DNA of 62,613 bases, filler included, from Circinaria calcarea (GCA_051942165.1; 12 parts of 12 records of this genome joined end to end with filler, not necessarily neighbours in it); one strand, 5' to 3'. Shown: positions 5,134 through 62,187, counted from the first letter of the whole stretch. The notes: generated from the sequence alone by a model not told the origin. Program-made: numbers and translations.

Positions 5134-5233
5134 NNNNNNNNNNNNNNNNNNNNNNNNNNNNNNNNNNNNNNNNNNNNTTAATTAATTAANNNNNNNNNNN
5201 NNNNNNNNNNNNNNNNNNNNNNNNNNNNNNNNN
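5134..5233. other. Artificial contig-joining linker; identical copies start at 10367, 15599, 20831, 26063, 31288, 36511, 41733, 46955, 52177 and 57396
   Basis: 44 N + TTAATTAATTAA (stops in all six frames) + 44 N, present 11 times. Contig lengths fall monotonically from 5133 to 5118 bp. Confidence 0.98.
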
Positions 5234-10366: not shown

Positions 10367-10466
10367 NNNNNNNNNNNNNNNNNNNNNNNNNNNNNNNNNN
10401 NNNNNNNNNNTTAATTAATTAANNNNNNNNNNNNNNNNNNNNNNNNNNNNNNNNNNNNNNNNNNNN

Positions 10467-12228: not shown

Positions 12229-15200
12229 ATGGACCCAATAAGTGCTGCTGCAAGTGTTCTAAGCATTGCGCAAATTGCTTTACAGGTTACTTCTGCTTTG
12301 GTGAAATATGCGCGAGATACGCAGCATGCCTCCACGGAGAGAACCTTGTTAGTCGAAGAAGCTTCTTCCCTTTCGCGGATGCTCGAAAGACTTCGAGACA
12401 GAGCAGAGGGTGCAAGCCTCAATGATGATTGGCTTGATGATCGCAAGGACCTCATACGACAGTTCCAAAGAGCCTATGAGGACCTTGCGAAATCACTGAA
12501 GTTCAACGTCTCTACGGGGCAACTGACACAGGAGACCCGTTTTAAGACGATCTTATCCTTGACGAAATGGTCATTTACCAAAGCAGAGGTTTACTCGCTC
12601 CTCGAGCGTATAAGTCGCCTGCAGCAACACGCAAATATCCTGCTTTTGAACGATCAGTAGTTAGTGAAAACCCTTTTGTCCCCGGAGCATACTATGGCAA
12701 CAAGGCTAACAGGTTAATCTCGTGTCTAATAGCACATTGGTCGAACGAATGGAACAAAAGCAGCAAGAAAGTAAAGTCACACGAAGCTTTACATCCGCGT
12801 TTCCGCTACTGCTAACCTGACAAGTCTTGGATCAGAAGTTGAAACTAGACCTCCTTAATTGGCTCTCGCCTCTACAAATGACTCAAGTCCACCAAACCAT
12901 CTCCGACCGAGTAGTAGCAGGTTCAGGCAGATGGTTCTTAAGCGCTAAGGAATTCAGAGATTGGCAATGTGGGCGGAAAGGATACTTATGGTGCTCGGGG
13001 ATACGTACGCATTATTTCCTTCTATGAATAGATTACCAAAGCTAATCTCAACCTCGTAGCCGGAGCAGGAAAAACCATTATCACGTACACCTTCCCTCTT
13101 GGAGATTTCTTTACAGGATATTAACACAGTCAAGGTCAATCGCTATGGACTTCCTTCTTAGTCGGCAGAATGAGAATCAGGAGAAAAAGATTGGCATCGC
13201 AGCTTTATATCTAAGATATAATGACCCTGAACAAACCCTTGATAATCTATTGTCCAGCCTCCTAAGGCAGCTGGCTCAGGAGTATGAGGTCCTTCCGCAA
13301 CCGTTACAAGACTTATACGTGCACCATCGTGATCGGAACACCTCGCCATCGCTACACGATATTGTAGAAGTACTATACTCTTTGGTGGAGACCTACAGCA
13401 GAATTTTTATACTTGTCGACGCCCTGGATGAATGCAGCGAGGAGGTTCGATGGGGACTACTGGAGAAGCTTCGCGGAATGGGATCCAGTGTTCACTTATT
13501 GATCACTTCTCGTTTTCTAGATAGCATTAACGAAGAATTAGAAGATTTCAGCCGACTGGAGATCAAGGCTAACAAAGCAGATGTTGAGCTATTTATCGAT
13601 TATCAGATACGGAAGAATAGGAACTTGCGGAGGATCGTTGAGAAAGGTCCAGCAATGCGTGATGCTATCAAGGAGGAAGTCGTTAAGACTGCTGAAGACA
13701 TGTATAGAGACCTCTGCCTATTATATTGGTAACTGGTATCTATCCACCTTGATACTGACGACACTCTCAGGTTTTTGCTCGCTCGACTCCACGTTGAATC
13801 CTTAGCAAGCGCCGCAGCTCTGTCCATCAAACACGTTCGGAGGAAGCTCCAAACCCTTCCTACAACATTGGCAGGCACATATGATGAAGCGATGCAACGG
13901 ATTGAGAGACAGGAGCCAGAGCATAGGGATATCGCTTTGAAATCCTTAGCATGGGTCAGCTATGCCTTCCGGTCACTGTCTTTGAAGGAACTTCAGCATG
14001 CCTTGGTAATTGAGCCTGGAGATACCGATTTGGATGAGGAACTTATAATGGATGGAAACAGTATAACAGCTTTGTGCGCCGGTCTGGTGGTTATCGACCA
14101 GAGAACCAACCGCGTAAACTTGGTTCATTATACCATGAAGAACTACTTTGAGGATGTTCGCGAGAGTCGGTTCCCTGGGTTCCATGCAAACATTACGATG
14201 AGTTGTGCCACGTACCTTACCTTGAACCCCCTTAAAGAGGCGACTATCTGGGAAATTCTCCGACAGTTCCCCCTAGCATATTACGCAGCCCAATACATGG
14301 GAGCTCATGCACGGCAAAATCCCGAAGATGCCCTGGAGTCATCTATCTTGGACGTACTCTGCAGGCTTCTTTCACATCCTGATAGGAGGAAGCCCCTTCT
14401 ATCCCTCTTAGACGGTCTGTACCTGATAAAGTCTGGTTTCTACTCATCAAACAAGTCAATACCTGGTTCTAGGAACGATACTGCCACTGATGAGGCTTTG
14501 GAACTGGGAGTGGGCTCATTGTTCAATGTAATCTCTGAGCTTCATGGTGGAAGCCCTGGGATGAATTTTCCAAAACTTGAAGATGAGGCTGACGAAGATG
14601 ACGAGGATAATGAGAATAGAGCAGAGACATGGGATATTCAAGCCAAGGCAAGCCGATTACCCGAAGTTACAGCTCTCCACCTCGCCGCCTCAATGGGACT
14701 TGCCAAAGTGGCCTCCATGTTGCTCAAGGAAACTCCGGATATAGACGCAGTAGACGAGACTGGAAAGACGGCACTAGCGGTAGCAATGGAAAAAGGATTC
14801 GAGAAAGCGGTTGAGTTTCTCGTGAACAGCGGCGCATGCGTGGACCTGGAGCATGATCATGGACGGGCAGTGCTGTTACTTGTCACTGAGAGAAAATGGG
14901 ACAGTGTTGTTCAAATCATTGCACAGAAATCAAAACTCTCGAGTACTACGGGTGAGACTATCGATATACCGGACCAGGTACAATTATTACTTGCAGCACA
15001 TGACGGTAATAGCGAAGAAGCTCGACGTCTCATAGCGCAAGGAGGTATCCATTTAGAGTCTGGCGATCGCATCTATGGTGCAACGGCCTTGTTTATTGCA
15101 GTCGAGCGCAGCCATTCGGAGATGGTGCAGGTCCTCCTTGCTGCTGGCGTAGACGTGAACTCCAAAGACAGTATGGGCCAGACATCATTACATAGAGCTA

Positions 15201-15598
15201 CCCGTCGTGAGAGTGATGTGTTAATGAGGTTGCTATTAAGAAGCGGAGCGGACGTTGACCTCCAGAACGACGAGGGTCGAACGGCGTGGAGTGCAAATGC
15301 TCGTACATGCAACGAACCTCTTCTAGGTATCCTTCTGGAAGCAGGGGCCGACCCAAGCACCAAAGGCCACAACGGGATCAGCGAGCTCTTTCAAGCGTCA
15401 GCGAGCGGAGAAACCACCTACGTCAAATTCTTACTCAAAAGTGGCACCGACCCCTCAATCAAGACTACATTTGGCTGGGCTCCGTTGCACTGGGCGGCTA
15501 ACAATGGGCATATAGACTGTGTTGAGCTTCTCATCGAGGCTGGTGCTGATACTTCTCCTCTTTCCGATCAAGATTCCACGCCGCTTGACTTGGCACTT
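12229..15598 (+). CDS. Fungal NLR-like STAND protein: HeLo-like N-terminus, NACHT, ankyrin repeats; 3' truncated
   Basis: N-terminus MDPISAAASVLSIAQ. Walker A (GI|PGAGKT) is split by an intron at about 13005-13059. Walker B is ILVDALDE, followed by LLITSR and FLLARLH. Multiple ankyrin repeats (TALHLAA, GKTALAVA, GQTSLHRA, GWAPLHWAA). Confidence 0.92.
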
Positions 15599-17298
15599 NN
15601 NNNNNNNNNNNNNNNNNNNNNNNNNNNNNNNNNNNNNNNNNNTTAATTAATTAANNNNNNNNNNNNNNNNNNNNNNNNNNNNNNNNNNNNNNNNNNNNGA
15701 GGGTGCGGGCCCCCGATGTGGTATGTCGACTTGAAGGTGAAAGTGTCGCCGTTGTATATGGGCTCGTCCTGCCTGTATAACTGCGTCTTGAGCATGCCGC
15801 ATGAGGCATGTTGTCACTCCCATACAAGTCCTGCAGTCAGCTGCACATTCCACTACTTTGCATGATACCATTGGATGGCGTTCTGGGAACGCCGAAGCAA
15901 CGAGCATTTGCGCAAATACTTCTGATCGAGCAGGTAGTGCAGTCCACAAATGCGGGCGATTTCAGCAATCTTGAGCGACCGGCTCATGCTGCAAGGCACC
16001 AATTTGGCGACAATGGCGTACGGTATCCTGTCAATTCAACATCTTCTTCAAGGTAGTATTCCGGTCAGGAATGGACGACACCACGCCGGAACCGGATGCT
16101 ATTCATCCAGAATTGCCGTTGCGGCGAAAGAAGCGGCGACGAGAAGGGCCAGAGAGTTAAGAGCCAATGACATCGCCGCTTTTTGTCCTTACTAAACCTT
16201 ATTCGGACAAACAGAACTCTGACGCGGACACCTGAGATGGCCAGTGTTCCTGATTCTGTGGTCGTATGTGAATGCTGTTTCTGCTATTAAATATATATTT
16301 CCAAGAACATTTTCTCCATACGCTTTACCCACGACTTACACACTACACATACAGCAACTCCACAGGATATCATAACAGTATTTCATAGCAGTATTTCCTA
16401 GCATTTTATCATACAAATATTCCGACCATACCGTGCAGCCCTGTTGACAACGTAGTGCCCTCCCTATAATGCTCCTCCTTTCTAGGAGAATAGGTTTTAT
16501 TAAAACACGGGCAGGGAAACAAGTCTTTGTCTTCGATGGAAACTGAAGACAAATGCACCTATGGTATTTTAACACTCCCATCCCAGCTGGTGCAAGGCAA
16601 ACTCGCAGTCTCTACCTTCCCTCGACAGCAACCTTTCATCCAGAAGAACAAATCCCTCCTTTTCCACCCTATCGTACATAGAGTATTGTTTTCGCCTAGG
16701 TGACCATAGCCTCGCCTTGGACGCTACCTGCTTTCATGGATATCCTAGTACGCCAGTCCGCACTTTATAATAACCTCGTAGTCGAGCAGCCTAATATATT
16801 CTTCTTGCTTTTGGATTCAGGCTCTGCACTCCCGTTTAACCCACGAGCAATACTTTTAATTCCGCACTTCCCCTTTCGTTCTTGATGAACCTTTCTTTAC
16901 GAAGCCATGTTGAGGTTAAGTAGCCGTACCGGCCGAGAATTGACACGAGGTGAAGGCCTGCAGTATGAGAAAGAATTTGTCACTTGGAAGTTGGGATGAA
17001 ATGAGGGTTTATAGTCGTCAAATTGTGATCGGAAAAACCACGAGCTCTAGCACACACCTATGCGAGCTCGGATATATCTCGATCTAAAAACGCTTGGGTA
17101 TCTCATTCTTGAGCCAATTATCCTCTCCCTTTTACCCAAAGCCCTTGGAGCAATCAGAACTACCCTCGTTGACCACATCCACTTTACCCCCTGACCTTTT
17201 CTTCCATAACCTATAGAACCCCTTATGAAATCATCCCCCGTAACCACCTACATTTGCTTCCGACTTTCCACCACATCCAATAACTTGCTCCATTGCTT

Positions 17299-17595
17299 CT
17301 AGTATGCACTCCGCTGCTTCTTTTCCTTCCGCTGATTCTCAGCTTGTTTTGCGCCCTCCTTGGCTCCCTCCTTGCCAGCTGCTTTGCCAGCCTTGCCAGC
17401 GACTTTTGTGCCAATGCGGGCGGCGGCGAGGCCAGCGGCTATGAGTGGAAAAAAGGGTTCTGGAGAGGGATCAGCGACGGCGTTGGGAAACGCGTCGGCA
17501 ATGGGAAAGGCGTCGGGGTCAGGGTAGGCGAAGGGGGTTGCGAGAGAGGAGGAGAGGAAGAGGAGGGTGAAGAGGGCGGGATTTGAGAAACGCAT
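17299..17595 (-). CDS. Small secreted prepropeptide: signal peptide, X-Pro/X-Ala dipeptide pro-region, cationic amphipathic peptide
   Basis: MRFSNPALFTLLFLSSSLA | TP FA YP DP DA FP IA DA FP NA VA DP SP EP | FFPLIAAGLAAARIGTKVAGKAGKAAGKEGAKEGAKQAENQRKEKKQRSAY*. Good start context (CACAAATG). Confidence 0.8.
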   Translation of the reverse strand: MRFSNPALFTLLFLSSSLATPFAYPDPDAFPIADAFPNAVADPSPEPFFPLIAAGLAAARIGTKVAGKAGKAAGKEGAKEGAKQAENQRKEKKQRSAY

Positions 17596-18374
17596 TTGTG
17601 GGATCTTAATATAGTGAAATATGTGGGGAATAATTAGATGGAGAGAATAGCAGAAGTATAAGAACGTAGAAAAGAGATGTGAGAAGAGAAAGACCTCGTC
17701 CTGCGAGAATCGTGATGAGATTTGCTATACAGTTCTCTGGTCGGGGATAGGGAGCCTTTTGTATTTCCAATACCGCTTTGCTCGAAGGAAAAAAACAACA
17801 TGACACATCCAACAGGAGGATCAGAGTTGGAGTAGTACGTAAATTGGAGTAGTACATGAATTGCAGTAGTATATGAAACACATCGCATCTCATCTTTGTT
17901 ATTCAGGATGCAGCTGGGCTTGACGTGTATCATCAGCTCCTATTGCACAAGGCCTTTCTACAATGTTCTAACAAGTCGGGGCAGCAAGAGGCGTGACAGG
18001 TGCAGCTCTAGGGAGAGTTGTAAGTATTTTTCTTGACGGATGTTGGAGTGAGTTGGTAAGGCTGCGCTAATGACTCATCCCCTTGTTCATATGGTAACCA
18101 GACCGCGTCGGCGCGCTCTAATAGAAAACATCTGGGCAAACAGCTAACAGCCAGAAGCAAATCCCCCCTGAGCCTTAACACTTTCTAATTGCACAATTCA
18201 AAGTTGGGACGCCAATCTTGAATTAGAACTACAACTTATCAAATCATTCAATTCAAGATACAGCCCTGCCTGTTCATCAATTGCAGTCTAAAGGACATCA
18301 TCGGACCTGACACGACTTGTTCAACCCTGTTCTAGAGTGCATGGTCACTATCTATGGTTTAAAGCTACTTCAAC

Positions 18375-20830
18375 ATGCCAAGGGTCGAAAATGCTCTATC
18401 GCAGTTAGTGATATCGTTCTTGCCAGCTTCCTCCGATGTAGAGGACGAAGAAGCTACACCAGAGCAGAAGCATGACCAGAATTTAGAGTTAGCCAGAAGC
18501 ATCCTCAAGAAGTAGGTGAATGTTCCTACGACTGATGCACAAGTTTATATCATCTAATTCTTTCGTAGCGAGGCTGTAGAGCTTCCTGACAATGATCATA
18601 TCTCTTACTTGGTCAAGAAGAAGTGTAGGACTATTTCTGACCGCGTCCCAAAAGAAAGCGCTGAGTTCCTCTAGTGGAGCGAGTTAATGATGCTCCGGAC
18701 ACGGCCGTCAGATACTCTAATCTTTACTCCAAACTTCTTACCATGCCGGTGGTCAATCACAAAGGGGCCGTCTTATATCTGCTTCATCAATTGGCCGGAT
18801 CTGGATTGGATAATGTCCATGCCTCTGAGGTCGCTCAACCTTACCGTATCGAGGGTAACCCTGTTCCGAACGGCCTTCATCAAAGATTTGAAGGTACTGC
18901 GGATCAAGACGAGGAAGAACAAAGTAATGTTATGAACGACGCATTTCCCCCAGCAAGCCCCTTTGGACTGTCACCGCGTCCGAGAAATCGCAATGGCAGT
19001 CACCAGGATGGCGTTGACCCCAATGGCATTTTTGGCAGGGAGGCAGAGGTGCAACCACGGTCTCCGAATGTTCCTTCATCCATGAAAGATGCGGCCGTCT
19101 CGAAATCAAGTCAGATGGCAGAGGCACCGTCAGAGTCTACCCTCTTGCGTGATTTGCCTTTTACCTTACAAGGACTATCATCTACGAACTTGCAATTCAG
19201 CTCCATGCCATCCTTAAGTCTACCGCCGAATCTCCCTTTACCAGTGATATCTCTATTACATACGCTGGCGGAGCCATCATTGCTGTACCGGAAACTCTCA
19301 GAGTTTGTACAGTCCGAGGTTAAAGGATTGAATGGACAGAGTTTACGGTCTGCTATTGGTAGCGAACTCCGATCTTATCTTGGATTAATTGCTACCCTCG
19401 AAGGTGAAATACGACGGACCATTTCCTCTGGGAAGGATGACCTTCCACCCGGTAACATTACCAAGGCTAGAGTGACACTCAAACGGTGCGTGATATGGAC
19501 TAGGGAAGCTACTTTGGGTCTTCGGCTCATGAGCGTAATGGCAGAGGAGTCACAAAGTAAGCGTTGTGCACGGAGACTGGTAGTCATCAACCTACTAACG
19601 GATTCCAGACTTGAAAGGGGGTCAAATAATCTCGATGATTCATTCCTTCTCTGCGTCTTACGGTGATCCCTTTGTTGGCGCCTTCGCTGAGCGCATGCTA
19701 GCACACATGACTACACCGTTCTATAATATGCTACGACATTGGATTTACGACGGACAGCTATTAGACCCCTACCTCGAGTTTTTTGTAATCCAACAGGATG
19801 TAGAGAGGATCGGTGGGAATGATTTGAACCCCCGAAAAGTGCCGGCTTCCAGTGTGTGGCAGGAAAAATACAAATTAGACAATCAAGCAGTGCCGACTAT
19901 TCTTACAGAGGACTTTGCAAAGAAAGTGTTTTTAATCGGGAAGAGTCTAAATTTCATCCGATACGCATGTGGGGACTCTGCCTGGGTTGAAGCGTACTCA
20001 AAAGACGCATCGAAAGAGCTTCACTACGGCGATACCGCGACTTTGGAGATGTCTATCGACCAGGCTTACAAGACTACCATGGCTCGATTGATGCATCTTA
20101 TGAATGACCAATTCAAACTTTTCGACCACCTCAATGCTTTGAAAAAGTATAGTCTTTTGGGTCAAGGTGACTTTGTTGTTTTATTGACGGAGTTACTATC
20201 CTCCTATTTGGATCGGCCTGTAGGCTCAATATTCCGCCATACTCTCAACGGCCAGCTGGCACATGCAATCCAAGGCTCAAATGCCCAGTACGACTCACCG
20301 GTTGTACTTCGATGCTTGGATGCAAGATTACTCGAACTCAGTCACGGAGAAACTGGATGGGACCTATTCACGCTAGAGTATAAGGTTGAGTCTCCGGTGG
20401 ACGTTGTCATTACGCCTTTGGCAAATAAACAGTACCTAAGACTATTCAGCTTCCTCTGGCGTATCAAGCGTGTCGAATATGGTCTGGGCATTACGTGGAG
20501 ACGCTGCATGACCGGCGGCCGCGGCGTTCTTGCGAGCGTCAGTGACAAGTTGGGTCGAGACTGGAAGATGGCAAGATGCTGTATTGCCGAGATGATCCAT
20601 TTTGTCAACCAGCTCCAGTATTACATCCTCTTCGAAGTCATCGAAGCTAGCTGGGACAAGCTCCAAACCTCCATCACCAAGCCCAACTGCACGCTCGACG
20701 ACTTGATCGGCGCGCACACGAAATACCTTGAGGACATCATGTGCAAGGGGCTCCTCGGCTCCAGCACGTCCAGCATCACCGAGACTCGTGAAGACAGCTT
20801 CACCAGCCAGCTCCATTACATCCTCAAAGG
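18375..20830 (+). CDS. SPC98: Gamma-tubulin complex component GCP3 (Spc98/Alp6); 3' truncated
   Basis: GRIP-domain motifs LLRDLPFTLQG, YGDPFV, WIYDGQLLDPYLEFF, IGKSLNFIR, LLGQGDF, GWDLFTLEYKV and QYYILFEVIE. Short 5' exons have canonical introns. Confidence 0.92.
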
Positions 20831-20930
20831 NNNNNNNNNNNNNNNNNNNNNNNNNNNNNNNNNNNNNNNNNNNNTTAATTAATTAANNNNNNNNNNNNNN
20901 NNNNNNNNNNNNNNNNNNNNNNNNNNNNNN

Positions 20931-47956: not shown

Positions 47957-49867
47957 TTATATCAAGGTAATTTCTTTCTTTTCCTGTTGAAATAGCATTT
48001 TGAAATCATTTCTCCAGGAGGGCCTGCGAGGCAATTCCTGCGTGTCGTAAAGCAAATAGTGTCCGATTCTCCTGTACAGCCTCTCACCCTCTATCTCCAC
48101 CTCCTTTAAAACCAGGCCCTCCCACTTACCTAGCCAATGATCTTCGCCCAACGCAGCAAGCCAGCACCTGGTTCCCTCCGCCAGCCTGTCATCCGGATCA
48201 TCTATATTAACCTGAAAGAAGTAAATATCATCAAACCATGTCCTTGGCTGGCCGAGTATAACAGGCCTGCCTTGCGTCCATTCTATTTCTGCATAATATG
48301 CTCTAATTTTCAGACTTGCAGAGACGATTTGCCCGGTTAGATTCCTCTCGTCGACTAGAGCCAATGTATAAGCCTCCGCATCTGCCAATGAGTTATACCG
48401 GCCGGTGTCTACGAACAACGGCCCATCCATCGACGCCCAACTCCAACTCGGAGTTTTGTTCTGGCTCTCGTCCTTATTCTTTTTCGCCGGTCCGTTAATC
48501 CTTCTTGGTATTTTCTCACGCCGTTTCTCTGCCGCGAGCGGAGGTTGTACTTGCCAGTTTAAACTATACGGTAAAGTCCTCCAGAAATGACCTGCAATAT
48601 ACACATCGTCCATCGCGCTCTCCATCCGCGATGCAATGCCAGACAGCGCCACCAACTTGTCTGCCTCGGGATATGTAAGCTCGCGGTCGACGTACTCTTC
48701 TAAAATGCGCCACCAGACGGATCGAAGTTTCCCGCCATCTGATGAATTCGGTATGGCCTTGTCAGAGAGGCGAAACAGGTCCGAGAGATTTTCGAGGCCG
48801 TACGGGAAAGATTCGCATGCGTTCGGAACTTGGACGCAATCCCAGAAGAGCTCTCCGAGGCCAAAGCTCAGGACGCGTACAGAAAGAAGCCGCTCTTGCA
48901 GAGCCCACGCGCGAAACCCGAGCGGCTGGTCGTAGATCGCTTCGCGAAAGTAGTCCCAAGAGAGGATGGTGCAGGTGCACTTTTCGGACTCACCATCGCC
49001 AACGATTCCCGTTGTTTCGACTTCGAATGGCAGCGTCGCGTTGGGAGTGCACCCGCCAAGGCAGCTTTCGTTCGGGTGCGCGGCTCTGGAGAGGGAGAGG
49101 TTGACGATGCAGTTGGAGTATACGTCCTGCATTTTATTGCACTCGGAGCGCCAATCTTTGGTACTTCCCGGACCAGATTGGATGACGCAGAGAGCGTCAA
49201 TCCAGAGATAGCGGATAGAGAGACATTTGATGAAGTGGATAGCCTCTCGGAAGGCGATAGGGATGTCAGAGCAGGGAATACCTAATTGAAGCTCCTGTAG
49301 GTTCGAGACTGTAAGGCGGAGGAAAGTCGGGTTGGGCCCCCAGCAGTAGCTTAACGTCGCATAGGGACCCGAGAGCTTCTCTTCTGCTGGCAAGATAACA
49401 CGTATTGTGGATTCTCCTAGCTCAAGTAGTCGCGTAGGATATGAGCGTGGTTGCGTGTTTTTCTGGCACTGTTCATGCCCGTTCAAGCAGTCGCTCATCC
49501 ATCTCTGAGCAGTTCGCGAGGCGTCTAATAACGGGATAGCCGATATTCTATTCCTGATACTGAAGTCCGTGGTAAGTTTCGGGCTTGGTATGGCTAGGAA
49601 GGCCCGACAGTCTTTGGTCTCTTTCCCGTCTTTAAGCATTATCATATCAACGATTATTTGAGTACCCGCCTCTGATCTGTAGACGCGGTACTTATACGGC
49701 TTCACTATGCATTTTTCGAGGGCACCGGACTTCTTTAAAGCGTACTGTAATAGAGGCTCACATATGTAGCAGCCGCTTGCTGCGGCATTGGTAAAGGACG
49801 TGAGGTCTGGATGGTGGTCCGCCCACGCGCTGCTTTGAAACATGGGCACGCATTTTTCGCAGAGCAT
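47957..49867 (-). CDS. HET-domain (heterokaryon incompatibility) protein
   Basis: 636-aa intronless ORF with PTRLL, YATLSYCWG, IRYLWIDALCVIQ, DWRSECNKMQDVY, RAWALQERLLS and PSWSWAS. Confidence 0.93.
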   Translation of the reverse strand: MLCEKCVPMFQSSAWADHHPDLTSFTNAAASGCYICEPLLQYALKKSGALEKCIVKPYKYRVYRSEAGTQIIVDMIMLKDGKETKDCRAFLAIPSPKLTTDFSIRNRISAIPLLDASRTAQRWMSDCLNGHEQCQKNTQPRSYPTRLLELGESTIRVILPAEEKLSGPYATLSYCWGPNPTFLRLTVSNLQELQLGIPCSDIPIAFREAIHFIKCLSIRYLWIDALCVIQSGPGSTKDWRSECNKMQDVYSNCIVNLSLSRAAHPNESCLGGCTPNATLPFEVETTGIVGDGESEKCTCTILSWDYFREAIYDQPLGFRAWALQERLLSVRVLSFGLGELFWDCVQVPNACESFPYGLENLSDLFRLSDKAIPNSSDGGKLRSVWWRILEEYVDRELTYPEADKLVALSGIASRMESAMDDVYIAGHFWRTLPYSLNWQVQPPLAAEKRREKIPRRINGPAKKNKDESQNKTPSWSWASMDGPLFVDTGRYNSLADAEAYTLALVDERNLTGQIVSASLKIRAYYAEIEWTQGRPVILGQPRTWFDDIYFFQVNIDDPDDRLAEGTRCWLAALGEDHWLGKWEGLVLKEVEIEGERLYRRIGHYLLYDTQELPRRPSWRNDFKMLFQQEKKEITLI

Positions 49868-61361: not shown

Positions 61362-62187
61362 TTATGCAAAGAGAACGGCAGCAACTGCACCAATGCCAGC
61401 CAAAGTCATGGACGCACCGAAGGAGCTGGCCCGCCCAGTGAAAGGAGTAATTGGTGAACTAGTAGGTGGTAGGCCAGAAAAAGCACTAGAAAAATGAGCA
61501 TAAGATACGATTCAAGCAGTGTAGGATAATTTACCCAGTTCCGGACGCGACACCAGTTGAGGACGGGATACCAGGGATTACGGGAGCAGTGACAAAAGTT
61601 GGAGCAGCGCTGAAGGATTCAGACACAACAGCGCCAACAGTGACAGTCGAGAGGACGGTGGTGGGCACACACGTGCTGATTGTGATGACCGAAATCGATG
61701 GGGCAGAAGTAGCAGGAAGGGCTGCGTTGTTTGATGAGACCGATACAGCTACTGGAGAAGATGGGACAACTGAAGGAGCTGCGGAGGTCATGTTGTACGA
61801 TGCCGTTTCGGGAAGAGCAGCGACTGAAGTTGATTCGGAAGCGATCGGGTACGAAGTGGCAACAACAGCCGAAGAACTAGACGATGCGACAGAGATGACA
61901 GTGTACGTTGATGACTCAGCGACGGACGAGCTGGCAGCATTGGTGCTCACCACCGGGTAGGTTGTGGTAGAAATAACGGTCGACTCGGCCGGACAGCTCT
62001 TGACGTCGGTAGCACAGCTGGTAACAGTCACCTGTTGGGTTGTGTAGCGAGTGACTTCGACGGCGACGCTGGACGTGATGGGAGTGATGTATGGCGCTTG
62101 GGGTTGGCCGTCGCCGATTTGGGAGACGTAGGTCGTTGCAGTGGCAGCACCAACGAAGGCGGCAGCAATGGCAAATGAGTAACGCAT
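61362..62187 (-). CDS. GPI-anchored Ser/Thr-rich cell-wall protein with one PIR-type repeat
   Basis: Signal peptide MRYSFAIAAAFVGAATA, VSQIGDGQPQA, TVTSC...SCP and an intron, then PFTGGASSFGASMTLAGIGAVAAVLFA*. Confidence 0.88.

Follow-up and report, generated by a model that had tools for sequence, protein, structure and literature searches.

A putative dipeptide-trimmed precursor of a cysteine-free cationic peptide in Circinaria calcarea

Could a fungus make a linear cationic peptide that is released from its precursor by the removal of dipeptides alone? This question is raised by an open reading frame (ORF) of 98 codons on the minus strand of a 62,613-base stretch of DNA from Circinaria calcarea (GCA_051942165.1), referred to here as the window. 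Its translation opens with a signal-like segment, continues with an acidic, phased run of dipeptides ending in Pro or Ala, and closes with a cationic peptide that contains no Cys. This architecture, proposed in an initial annotation of the locus, is supported by the statistics of the sequence. The ORF is read here, tentatively and with a likelihood a little short of even, as a putative intron-less gene of a filamentous ascomycete encoding a secretory pre-pro-peptide of the melittin type, which would be trimmed by a dipeptidyl peptidase (DPP), would mature without an endoprotease and would yield a membrane-perturbing product. Taken as a whole, the interpretation in the initial annotation, a membrane-active peptide kept inactive until secretion, is partly supported.

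Organization of the ORF

There is only one Met in the ORF, at position 1, and the 43 further open codons upstream contain no in-frame ATG. No strand had been given in the initial annotation; its translation is identical, letter for letter, to that obtained by re-translating the minus strand, and consists of three parts: MRFSNPALFTLLFLSSSLA (residues 1-19), the dipeptide run (residues 20-47) and FFPLIAAGLAAARIGTKVAGKAGKAAGKEGAKEGAKQAENQRKEKKQRSAY (residues 48-98). The features of the ORF are as follows.

17299..17595, minus strand: whole ORF, 98 codons and a TAG stop (17299-17301)
17539..17595, minus strand: predicted signal peptide, residues 1-19 (MRFSNPALFTLLFLSSSLA), from a rule-based reading and an AlphaFold2 (AF2) helix at residues 6-17
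17455..17538, minus strand: pro-region (residues 20-47), made up of 14 X-Pro/X-Ala dipeptides in a single phase, with a net charge of -5 and a coil prediction
17419..17454, minus strand: apolar start of the predicted product (residues 48-59, FFPLIAAGLAAA), with the Kyte-Doolittle 19-residue maximum of 1.35 at residue 48
17347..17418, minus strand: Lys/Ala/Gly segment, product residues 13-36, with a basic residue every 3-4 positions, derived in part from a 9-nt x3 DNA repeat at 17370-17400
17302..17346, minus strand: polar basic C-terminal tail (QAENQRKEKKQRSAY), with one Lys-Lys pair and no KR or RR

The signal-like segment has Arg2 in its n-region, ALFTLLFL as its hydrophobic core and SSSLA as its c-region. 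The -3/-1 rule, which is the sole basis for placing a cut between Ala19 and Thr20, permits cleavage after Ala19 or after Ser17, and the phase of the dipeptides is kept by either.

The dipeptide run and its phase

The dipeptides of residues 20-47 are TP FA YP DP DA FP IA DA FP NA VA DP SP EP, with Pro at eight and Ala at six of the second positions and neither residue at any of the first positions (0/14). The initial annotation had described 14 consecutive dipeptides ending in Pro or Ala, acidic and in perfect phase; the residue count and shuffling tests confirm the number and the phase, and the net charge of -5 confirms the acidity. As Leu18-Ala19 lies in the same phase, the run can be counted as 15 dipeptides, a length not attained in 200,000 shufflings of the full sequence (maximum 13), while 2 of 200,000 shuffles of residues 20-98 reach 14. 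For all of the 14 Pro and Ala among these 28 residues to fall at even positions, the hypergeometric chance is 2.5e-8; three of the dipeptides are not independent, because of one internal 18-nt duplication (DAFPIA/DAFPNA). Across the six frames of the window the run is unique, at a threshold of at least six dipeptides (strict) or at least seven (loose).

A DNA microsatellite was considered as the source of the phase and is ruled out: Tandem Repeats Finder reports no array within 17455-17538, and the phase is therefore not a microsatellite artefact. Within the ORF, the program does report the 9-nt x3 array that underlies some of the Lys/Ala/Gly segment, together with short arrays where the signal peptide is encoded.

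The placement of the run is as precise as its phase. It opens at the predicted signal cleavage site and closes exactly at the hydrophobic head, where the next pair is Phe-Phe, followed by Pro, and the phase is broken. Dipeptidyl aminopeptidases of the Ste13/DPP-IV type prefer X-Ala and X-Pro and are widespread in fungi, according to two surveys (PMC6339444; PMC9769878), and the mixture of Pro and Ala at every second position therefore fits Ste13/DPP-IV specificity. At least one of KEX1, KEX2 and STE13 is missing from only 15 of 250 fungal catalogues (Le Marquer et al., PMC6339444).

The predicted product

The initial annotation had placed the start of a 51-residue peptide at 17454, at the point where the phase breaks, and had counted 12 Lys/Arg, four Glu and no Cys in it; all of this holds. 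The 51-mer carries a net charge of +8, its residues 1-41 one of +4. It is the polarity along the chain that stands out, with 12 uninterrupted apolar residues (FFPLIAAGLAAA) followed by the cationic tail. When predicted by AF2 from the single sequence, the protein has two helices, at residues 6-17 and 50-97, with coil between them (18-49); from residue 51 on, the block means of pLDDT are 68-79. The N-terminus of the product may resemble the 'F-L-P' starts of the frog temporin/brevinin type. The Lys-Lys pair in the C-terminal tail might be a weak Kex2 site, KK being reported to serve Kex2 'to a lesser extent' (PMC6339444).

Proposed maturation

The ORF, its phase, the break point and the layout of charge can be read from the DNA itself, and from these we infer expression, secretion, trimming and membrane activity. 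Following co-translational import, signal peptidase would cut after Ala19 (or Ser17). Within the late Golgi, or in the extracellular space, a dipeptidyl aminopeptidase of the Ste13/DPP-IV type would then strip the acidic cap in 14 or 15 X-Pro/X-Ala steps and would stop at Phe-Phe-Pro, where Phe would not be accepted at P1 and Pro follows the bond; this stopping point has support from the enzyme specificity given in PMC6339444 and PMC9769878. The product released would be of about 51 residues, with a net charge of +8, or of about 41 residues and +4 if it were also cut at the Lys-Lys/Arg cluster.

With a 12-residue hydrophobic head and a long helical tail rich in Lys, Ala and Gly, the product may bind to and perturb the anionic membranes of competing microbes, while the acidic cap (-5) may shield the producer during export. 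Membrane activity is proposed because of the charge layout and the protective logic of such a cap. The trimming scheme, also put forward in the initial annotation, finds support in fungal precedents, namely the AEP of Yarrowia and the STE13 signatures in KEX2-repeat (KEP) precursors.

A family of polyprecursors in Agaricales with a similar design

Searched with phmmer against 1.84 billion representatives, the ORF has two matches at E <= 0.001, P0002 and P0003. The former, of 1603 aa and matched over 11 repeated stretches, was rejected as an artefact of composition and repeats. P0003 is a protein of 308 aa from a JGI contig with a signal-like start, and it carries four copies of ...Ala-Arg | Glu-Pro-Glu-Pro | LFGLGAVAKIGGKLMHKVGHKKAKQGAE...NSRR with acidic spacers between them. 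Its core of 40 aa has a net charge of +4 and stands behind Arg-Glu-Pro-Glu-Pro, so that the order of features is the same as in the ORF.

Starting from P0003 and from an alignment of first units, additional searches brought in 12 further members, including hypothetical proteins at NCBI from Agrocybe pediades and Psilocybe cyanescens; the others are on JGI contigs. Because of the members in these two species, the family is present at least in Agaricales, and for the same reason fungi can be said to encode cationic peptides behind X-Pro dipeptides. The common plan of P0003-P0015 starts with a signal peptide, an acidic pro-region and Glu-Arg | (Ser/Glu)-Pro or Arg-Glu-Pro-Glu-Pro, continues with one to five cationic, often His-rich peptides of 26-42 aa that are followed by Arg-Arg or Lys-Arg, and is completed by acidic EF(D/E)(D/E)EL..R spacers and a C-terminal (D/E)(D/E)LD.

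When the last 57 residues of the ORF were aligned to one unit of P0003, the local score was 67, which none of 20,000 composition-preserving shuffles reached. Against the first cores of its relatives, the alignment score was reached by 0-71 of 5000 shuffles for six of eight (P0010, 0/5000; P0014, 6/5000; P0009, 8/5000; P0005, 11/5000; P0006, 44/5000; P0015, 71/5000), the other two being P0011 (414/5000) and P0013 (979/5000); the tests on P0005-P0015 are not independent, because the members are interrelated and were found in part by a profile containing the ORF. The cores of the ORF and P0003 are alike in length (41 and 40 residues), in net charge (+4 in both) and in mean hydrophobicity, which is nearly equal. 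The ORF has neither the EF(D/E)(D/E)EL..R spacers nor the (D/E)(D/E)LD end.

The ORF and the Agaricales family, the sole look-alike of any weight, thus appear, on comparison of their sequences, to share a design of X-Pro dipeptides, Phe, an apolar head, Lys every 3-4 residues and a polar basic end, which could reflect remote homology or convergence; on this comparison the ORF is not assigned to the family. None of the motif strings of the Agaricales proteins occurs in the literature searched, and six motif strings are absent from the supplement text of the KEP surveys of Le Marquer 2019 and Umemura 2020, whose full tables that text perhaps does not cover. P0003-P0015 are apparently uncharacterised and are candidate mushroom antimicrobial peptides.

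Evidence that weighs against the proposed reading

A number of results count against the interpretation of the ORF as a precursor of a membrane-perturbing peptide, and the homology searches provide several of them. The phmmer E-value of P0003, 1.4e-5, is a sum over four repeats. By BLASTP, PEP-FFPLIAAGLAAARIGTKVAGKAGK... of the ORF was aligned to PEP-LFGL----GAVAKIGGKLMHKVGHKK... of P0003 with 35% identity over 65 residues, and because this amounts to only 30 bits, P0003 is not significant database-wide by its single best match. With hhalign, the comparison between the ORF and a nine-member alignment of the family gave a probability of 2.15%, with the signal peptides alone aligned. A word-indexed protein search with the ORF gave 55 candidates, none of which scored, and metagenome scans with the ORF and with the alignment of the ORF and P0003 gave 590 and 596 pattern matches, respectively, of which none was confirmed. 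No paralogue was found by tblastn in the other 11 contigs of the window, the next best match being 24 bits (E 0.037) at 61532-61786. The exact protein is missing from a collection of 15 billion proteins, in which one of ten other ORFs of the window is present.

Features of the locus and of the product add to these. Position -3 relative to the ATG holds C instead of a purine, and the opposite strand is open for 100 codons (17284-17586, plus strand), with no ATG at its head. By the Fauchere-Pliska scale, product residues 1-41 have a hydrophobic moment of 0.156 at 100 degrees, a value that 5278 of 20,000 shuffles equal or exceed; for residues 9-38, the corresponding figure is 11,034 of 20,000. 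Mostly Ala and Gly form the non-polar face, which is a weak basis for lysis, and the mean pLDDT of the AF2 model, 64.6, indicates modest confidence.

These values bear on the helix envisaged in the initial annotation. Basic residues do occur at product positions 13, 17, 21, 24, 28, 32 and 36, as it had listed; they do not form the single stripe that it expected, being spread over about 140 degrees of the helical wheel. Nor is a well-formed amphipathic helix borne out, as shuffles attain hydrophobic moments just as high, and the peak of hydrophobic periodicity is at 90 degrees, not 100. With linear cationic alpha-helical antimicrobial peptides the predicted product shares its charge, the absence of Cys and a predicted helix; clear polar and apolar faces are lacking.

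Further searches with the ORF returned nothing of significance in Pfam (an AIM3 match only, E 3.6), and no usable match was obtained in the ESM Atlas with either the ORF or P0003 as the query.

Alternative explanations

It is rather unlikely, though slightly likelier than the other alternatives, that the ORF arose by chance within a short GC-rich island and that its features are coincidental. Such an origin would account for the lack of a significant homologue, the absence of the exact protein from a collection that holds another ORF of the same assembly, the ORFs of 80-100 codons that are common nearby, the open antisense frame and a codon-usage score that does not discriminate. It leaves the phase, seen in 0 of 200,000 shuffles, as a coincidence, together with its start at the predicted signal cleavage and its end exactly at the hydrophobic head, and the sole Met is the one that opens a signal-like peptide. 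In addition, P0003 is a secreted precursor of fungal type with X-Pro dipeptides at the aligned position, which would be very unlikely for noise. Overall, the ORF is probably a real gene. The evidence for processing serves equally well a real gene whose secreted, DPP-trimmed product is not lytic and is instead a signalling peptide, a surface-active or wall-associated peptide (cf. the Ustilago Rep1 repellents) or a Lys-rich peptide that binds polyanions such as cell wall or nucleic acid. The weak amphipathicity and the low-complexity tail, rich in Ala, Gly, Lys and Glu and derived in part from the 9-nt repeat, would suit such a role, and hormone-like roles have been suggested for peptides with the STE13 signature (Le Marquer et al., PMC6339444). 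At 51 aa with 12 basic residues, the product is unlike the short pheromones of the alpha-factor type. A strictly hydrophobic 12-residue head joined to a cationic tail is a membrane-inserting layout, as in melittin and candidalysin, and an acidic cap is most readily understood if the released product harms its producer. A non-lytic product is considered improbable.

Two further explanations dispense with the release of a peptide. In one, for which the likelihood is small, the ORF encodes a small type I membrane protein in which FFPLIAAGLAAARIGTKVAG spans the membrane, the acidic stretch forms a short stalk on the luminal or extracellular side and the Lys-rich tail faces the cytosol, in keeping with the positive-inside rule. 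A strongly basic tail does follow the hydrophobic stretch, and the Kyte-Doolittle 19-residue maximum there (1.35, at residue 48) is the highest of the protein, the signal peptide reaching 1.29. Single-pass membrane proteins have at least about 19 apolar residues and a usual membrane-span threshold of 1.6, neither of which is reached here: just 12 uninterrupted apolar residues precede Arg and Lys, and 1.35 is below the threshold. Furthermore, the matching segment of P0003 occurs four times between cleavage sites and so is no anchor in that protein, and a stalk has no need of strict alternation with Pro or Ala. In the other, which has the slightest chance of all, the product is a small secreted or wall protein that keeps its X-Pro/X-Ala stretch, which would then act as a rigid spacer rich in proline. 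Alternating X-Pro segments do form extended spacers in other proteins; here, six of the 14 second positions are Ala and no first position is Pro or Ala, a pattern that is better fitted to the specificity of the enzyme. Release of a membrane-perturbing peptide by dipeptide trimming is therefore retained as the preferred reading of the ORF.

Genomic context

The window consists of 12 separate contigs, in descending order from 5133 to 5118 bp, joined by 11 linkers of the form N44-TTAATTAATTAA-N44 with stops in all six frames (5134-5233, 10367-10466, 15599-15698, 20831-20930 and seven more). The pieces stem from a fragmented assembly. Because the window is a chain of separate contigs, genes on different pieces are not neighbours, and the real context of the ORF is 15699..20830 only. 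On this contig a gamma-tubulin-complex gene is divergently transcribed from about 18743 to the contig end. Between 15699 and 17298 no stop-to-stop ORF exceeds 104 codons, ORFs of 80-100 codons are common near the ORF, and an Rfam scan of the contig gave no matches.

With a GC fraction of 0.596, against 0.430 and 0.453 in its flanks, and a GC3 of 0.64, the ORF forms a GC island, and the open antisense frame is probably a by-product of its GC-rich codons. A codon-usage score tried on the ORFs of the window did not separate real from spurious ones. As the exact protein is absent from the 15-billion-protein collection, the ORF has probably never been annotated. CT-rich tracts occur in the promoters of filamentous fungi, and there is one upstream of the ORF; like the GC island, it speaks for a real gene.

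17635..17695, minus strand: CT-rich (pyrimidine) tract, 40-100 nt upstream of the ATG

Further upstream, 17827-17877 holds three tandem 17-nt units (plus-strand consensus TTGGAGTAGTACATGAA), each of which has a CCAAT-like box when read on the minus strand. These units are 232-282 nt upstream of the start codon, within the 1.1 kb that the ORF and the divergent gamma-tubulin-complex gene have in common, and may be a promoter element.

On the other contigs there are a STAND NTPase/ankyrin (NLR-like) gene at 13046-15598 (plus strand) and a HET-domain protein at 47960-49867 (minus strand), both typical of filamentous ascomycetes. These contigs also encode topoisomerase I and an M35 peptidase of the deuterolysin type, and they contain long exons, of 914, 637 and 636 codons, with no interruption. 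Taken together, such features suggest that the DNA comes from a filamentous ascomycete. An argument from neighbourhood, based on the ankyrin/STAND ORFs at 13046-15598, was dropped, these ORFs being on another contig.

Significance

Maturation by dipeptidyl aminopeptidases is already known in fungi, as are precursors of the melittin type in insects. To our knowledge, almost all known gene-encoded fungal antimicrobials are either Cys-rich (defensins, AFP/PAF) or released by Kex2 (candidalysin, KEP peptides). In the titles and abstracts that made up the literature searched, no description was found of a fungal precursor in which the whole pro-part is a fuse of 14 dipeptides before a linear cationic peptide. 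The initial annotation had raised the possibility of an undescribed fungal peptide family, and the searches made with the ORF brought up no second member. The literature searched likewise yielded no description of the cationic polyprecursors of Agaricales, which the tables of the KEP surveys may list in parts not covered. The ORF is a plausible addition, from its sequence, to a known processing scheme, and this addition is made on a single unannotated ORF.

If the reading is correct, a linear cationic peptide gated by a dipeptidyl-aminopeptidase 'fuse' alone would represent a new activation logic for secreted peptides of fungi and a striking convergence with insect venom. It would also supply a pattern with which to mine for small peptides that annotation skips, consisting of a signal peptide, at least six X-Pro/X-Ala dipeptides and a short cationic core, and the Agaricales family would contribute many more candidate peptides. 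A broader idea, which is speculative and more doubtful than probable, is that filamentous fungi possess linear, Cys-free peptides, host-defence-like or cytolytic, that are activated purely by dipeptide trimming and are convergent with the melittin switch, the ORF and the Agaricales polyprecursors being two faces of a class of antimicrobial peptides spread over the fungal kingdom and overlooked until now.

Comparison with known systems

The initial annotation had set the ORF apart from fungal defensins and from KEP precursors, rightly in both cases. With no Cys in its 98 residues, the protein has nothing of the Cys-stabilised framework of defensins or of AFP/PAF. KEP precursors have several near-identical cores with KR/RR or KK between them and one to three dipeptides per site, whereas the ORF has a single core, no KR or RR, one KK near its C-terminus and 14 dipeptides that run from the signal cleavage site. 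In candidalysin, a hydrophobic helix is followed by a basic C-terminus. This peptide of Candida albicans Ece1 is, like the predicted product of the ORF, fungal, ribosomal, Cys-free, linear, secreted and cut from a precursor; unlike it, candidalysin is released by Kex2/Kex1 at KR sites, with no dipeptide trimming, and there is no sequence similarity between the two. It is named as a KEP-derived peptide in PMC9769878.

In the yeast alpha-factor and the KEPs that carry the STE13 signature, as proposed for the ORF, a secreted peptide without modifications gains its final N-terminus when Ste13 takes off X-Ala/X-Pro dipeptides. This signature occurs widely in Ascomycota, Basidiomycota and Glomeromycotina (PMC6339444; PMC9769878). 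The Agaricales polyprecursors resemble the ORF in having (Glu/Ser)-Pro or Glu-Pro-Glu-Pro directly before a peptide whose first residues are Phe or Leu-Phe, whose Lys recur at intervals of 3-4 residues and whose C-terminal end is polar and basic. They differ in having one to five cores, acidic spacers, a monobasic Arg ahead of the dipeptides and, behind each peptide, RR/KR; many of the peptides are His-rich.

In the AEP (XPR2) of Yarrowia lipolytica, as in the ORF, a dipeptide run lies directly behind the signal peptide, and it is removed in the late Golgi (PMC10095220 and PMC6311201, citing Matoba and Ogrydziak 1989). There, the run stands before a large pro-domain and the Lys-Arg site of a 32-kDa subtilisin-like enzyme, whereas in the ORF it makes up the whole pro-part, with a peptide of 51 aa as the cargo. 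Three traits of a DPP-matured precursor are seen in the ORF, namely a predicted signal peptide, a run in one phase from the cleavage site and an end bond that would not be cut.

A further parallel is from another kingdom and involves no sequence relationship. In honeybee prepromelittin and related precursors of hymenopteran venoms, as in the ORF, the signal is followed by an acidic pro-part made of X-Pro/X-Ala dipeptides alone, with no endoprotease site. The stepwise removal of the promelittin cap by DPP-IV is said to have been described by Kreil et al. 1980. The predicted product of the ORF is about twice as long as melittin, is far richer in Ala, Gly and Lys, has weak amphipathicity and is not followed by a C-terminal Gly amidation signal; like melittin, it is Cys-free, hydrophobic in its N-terminal part and basic towards the C-terminus.

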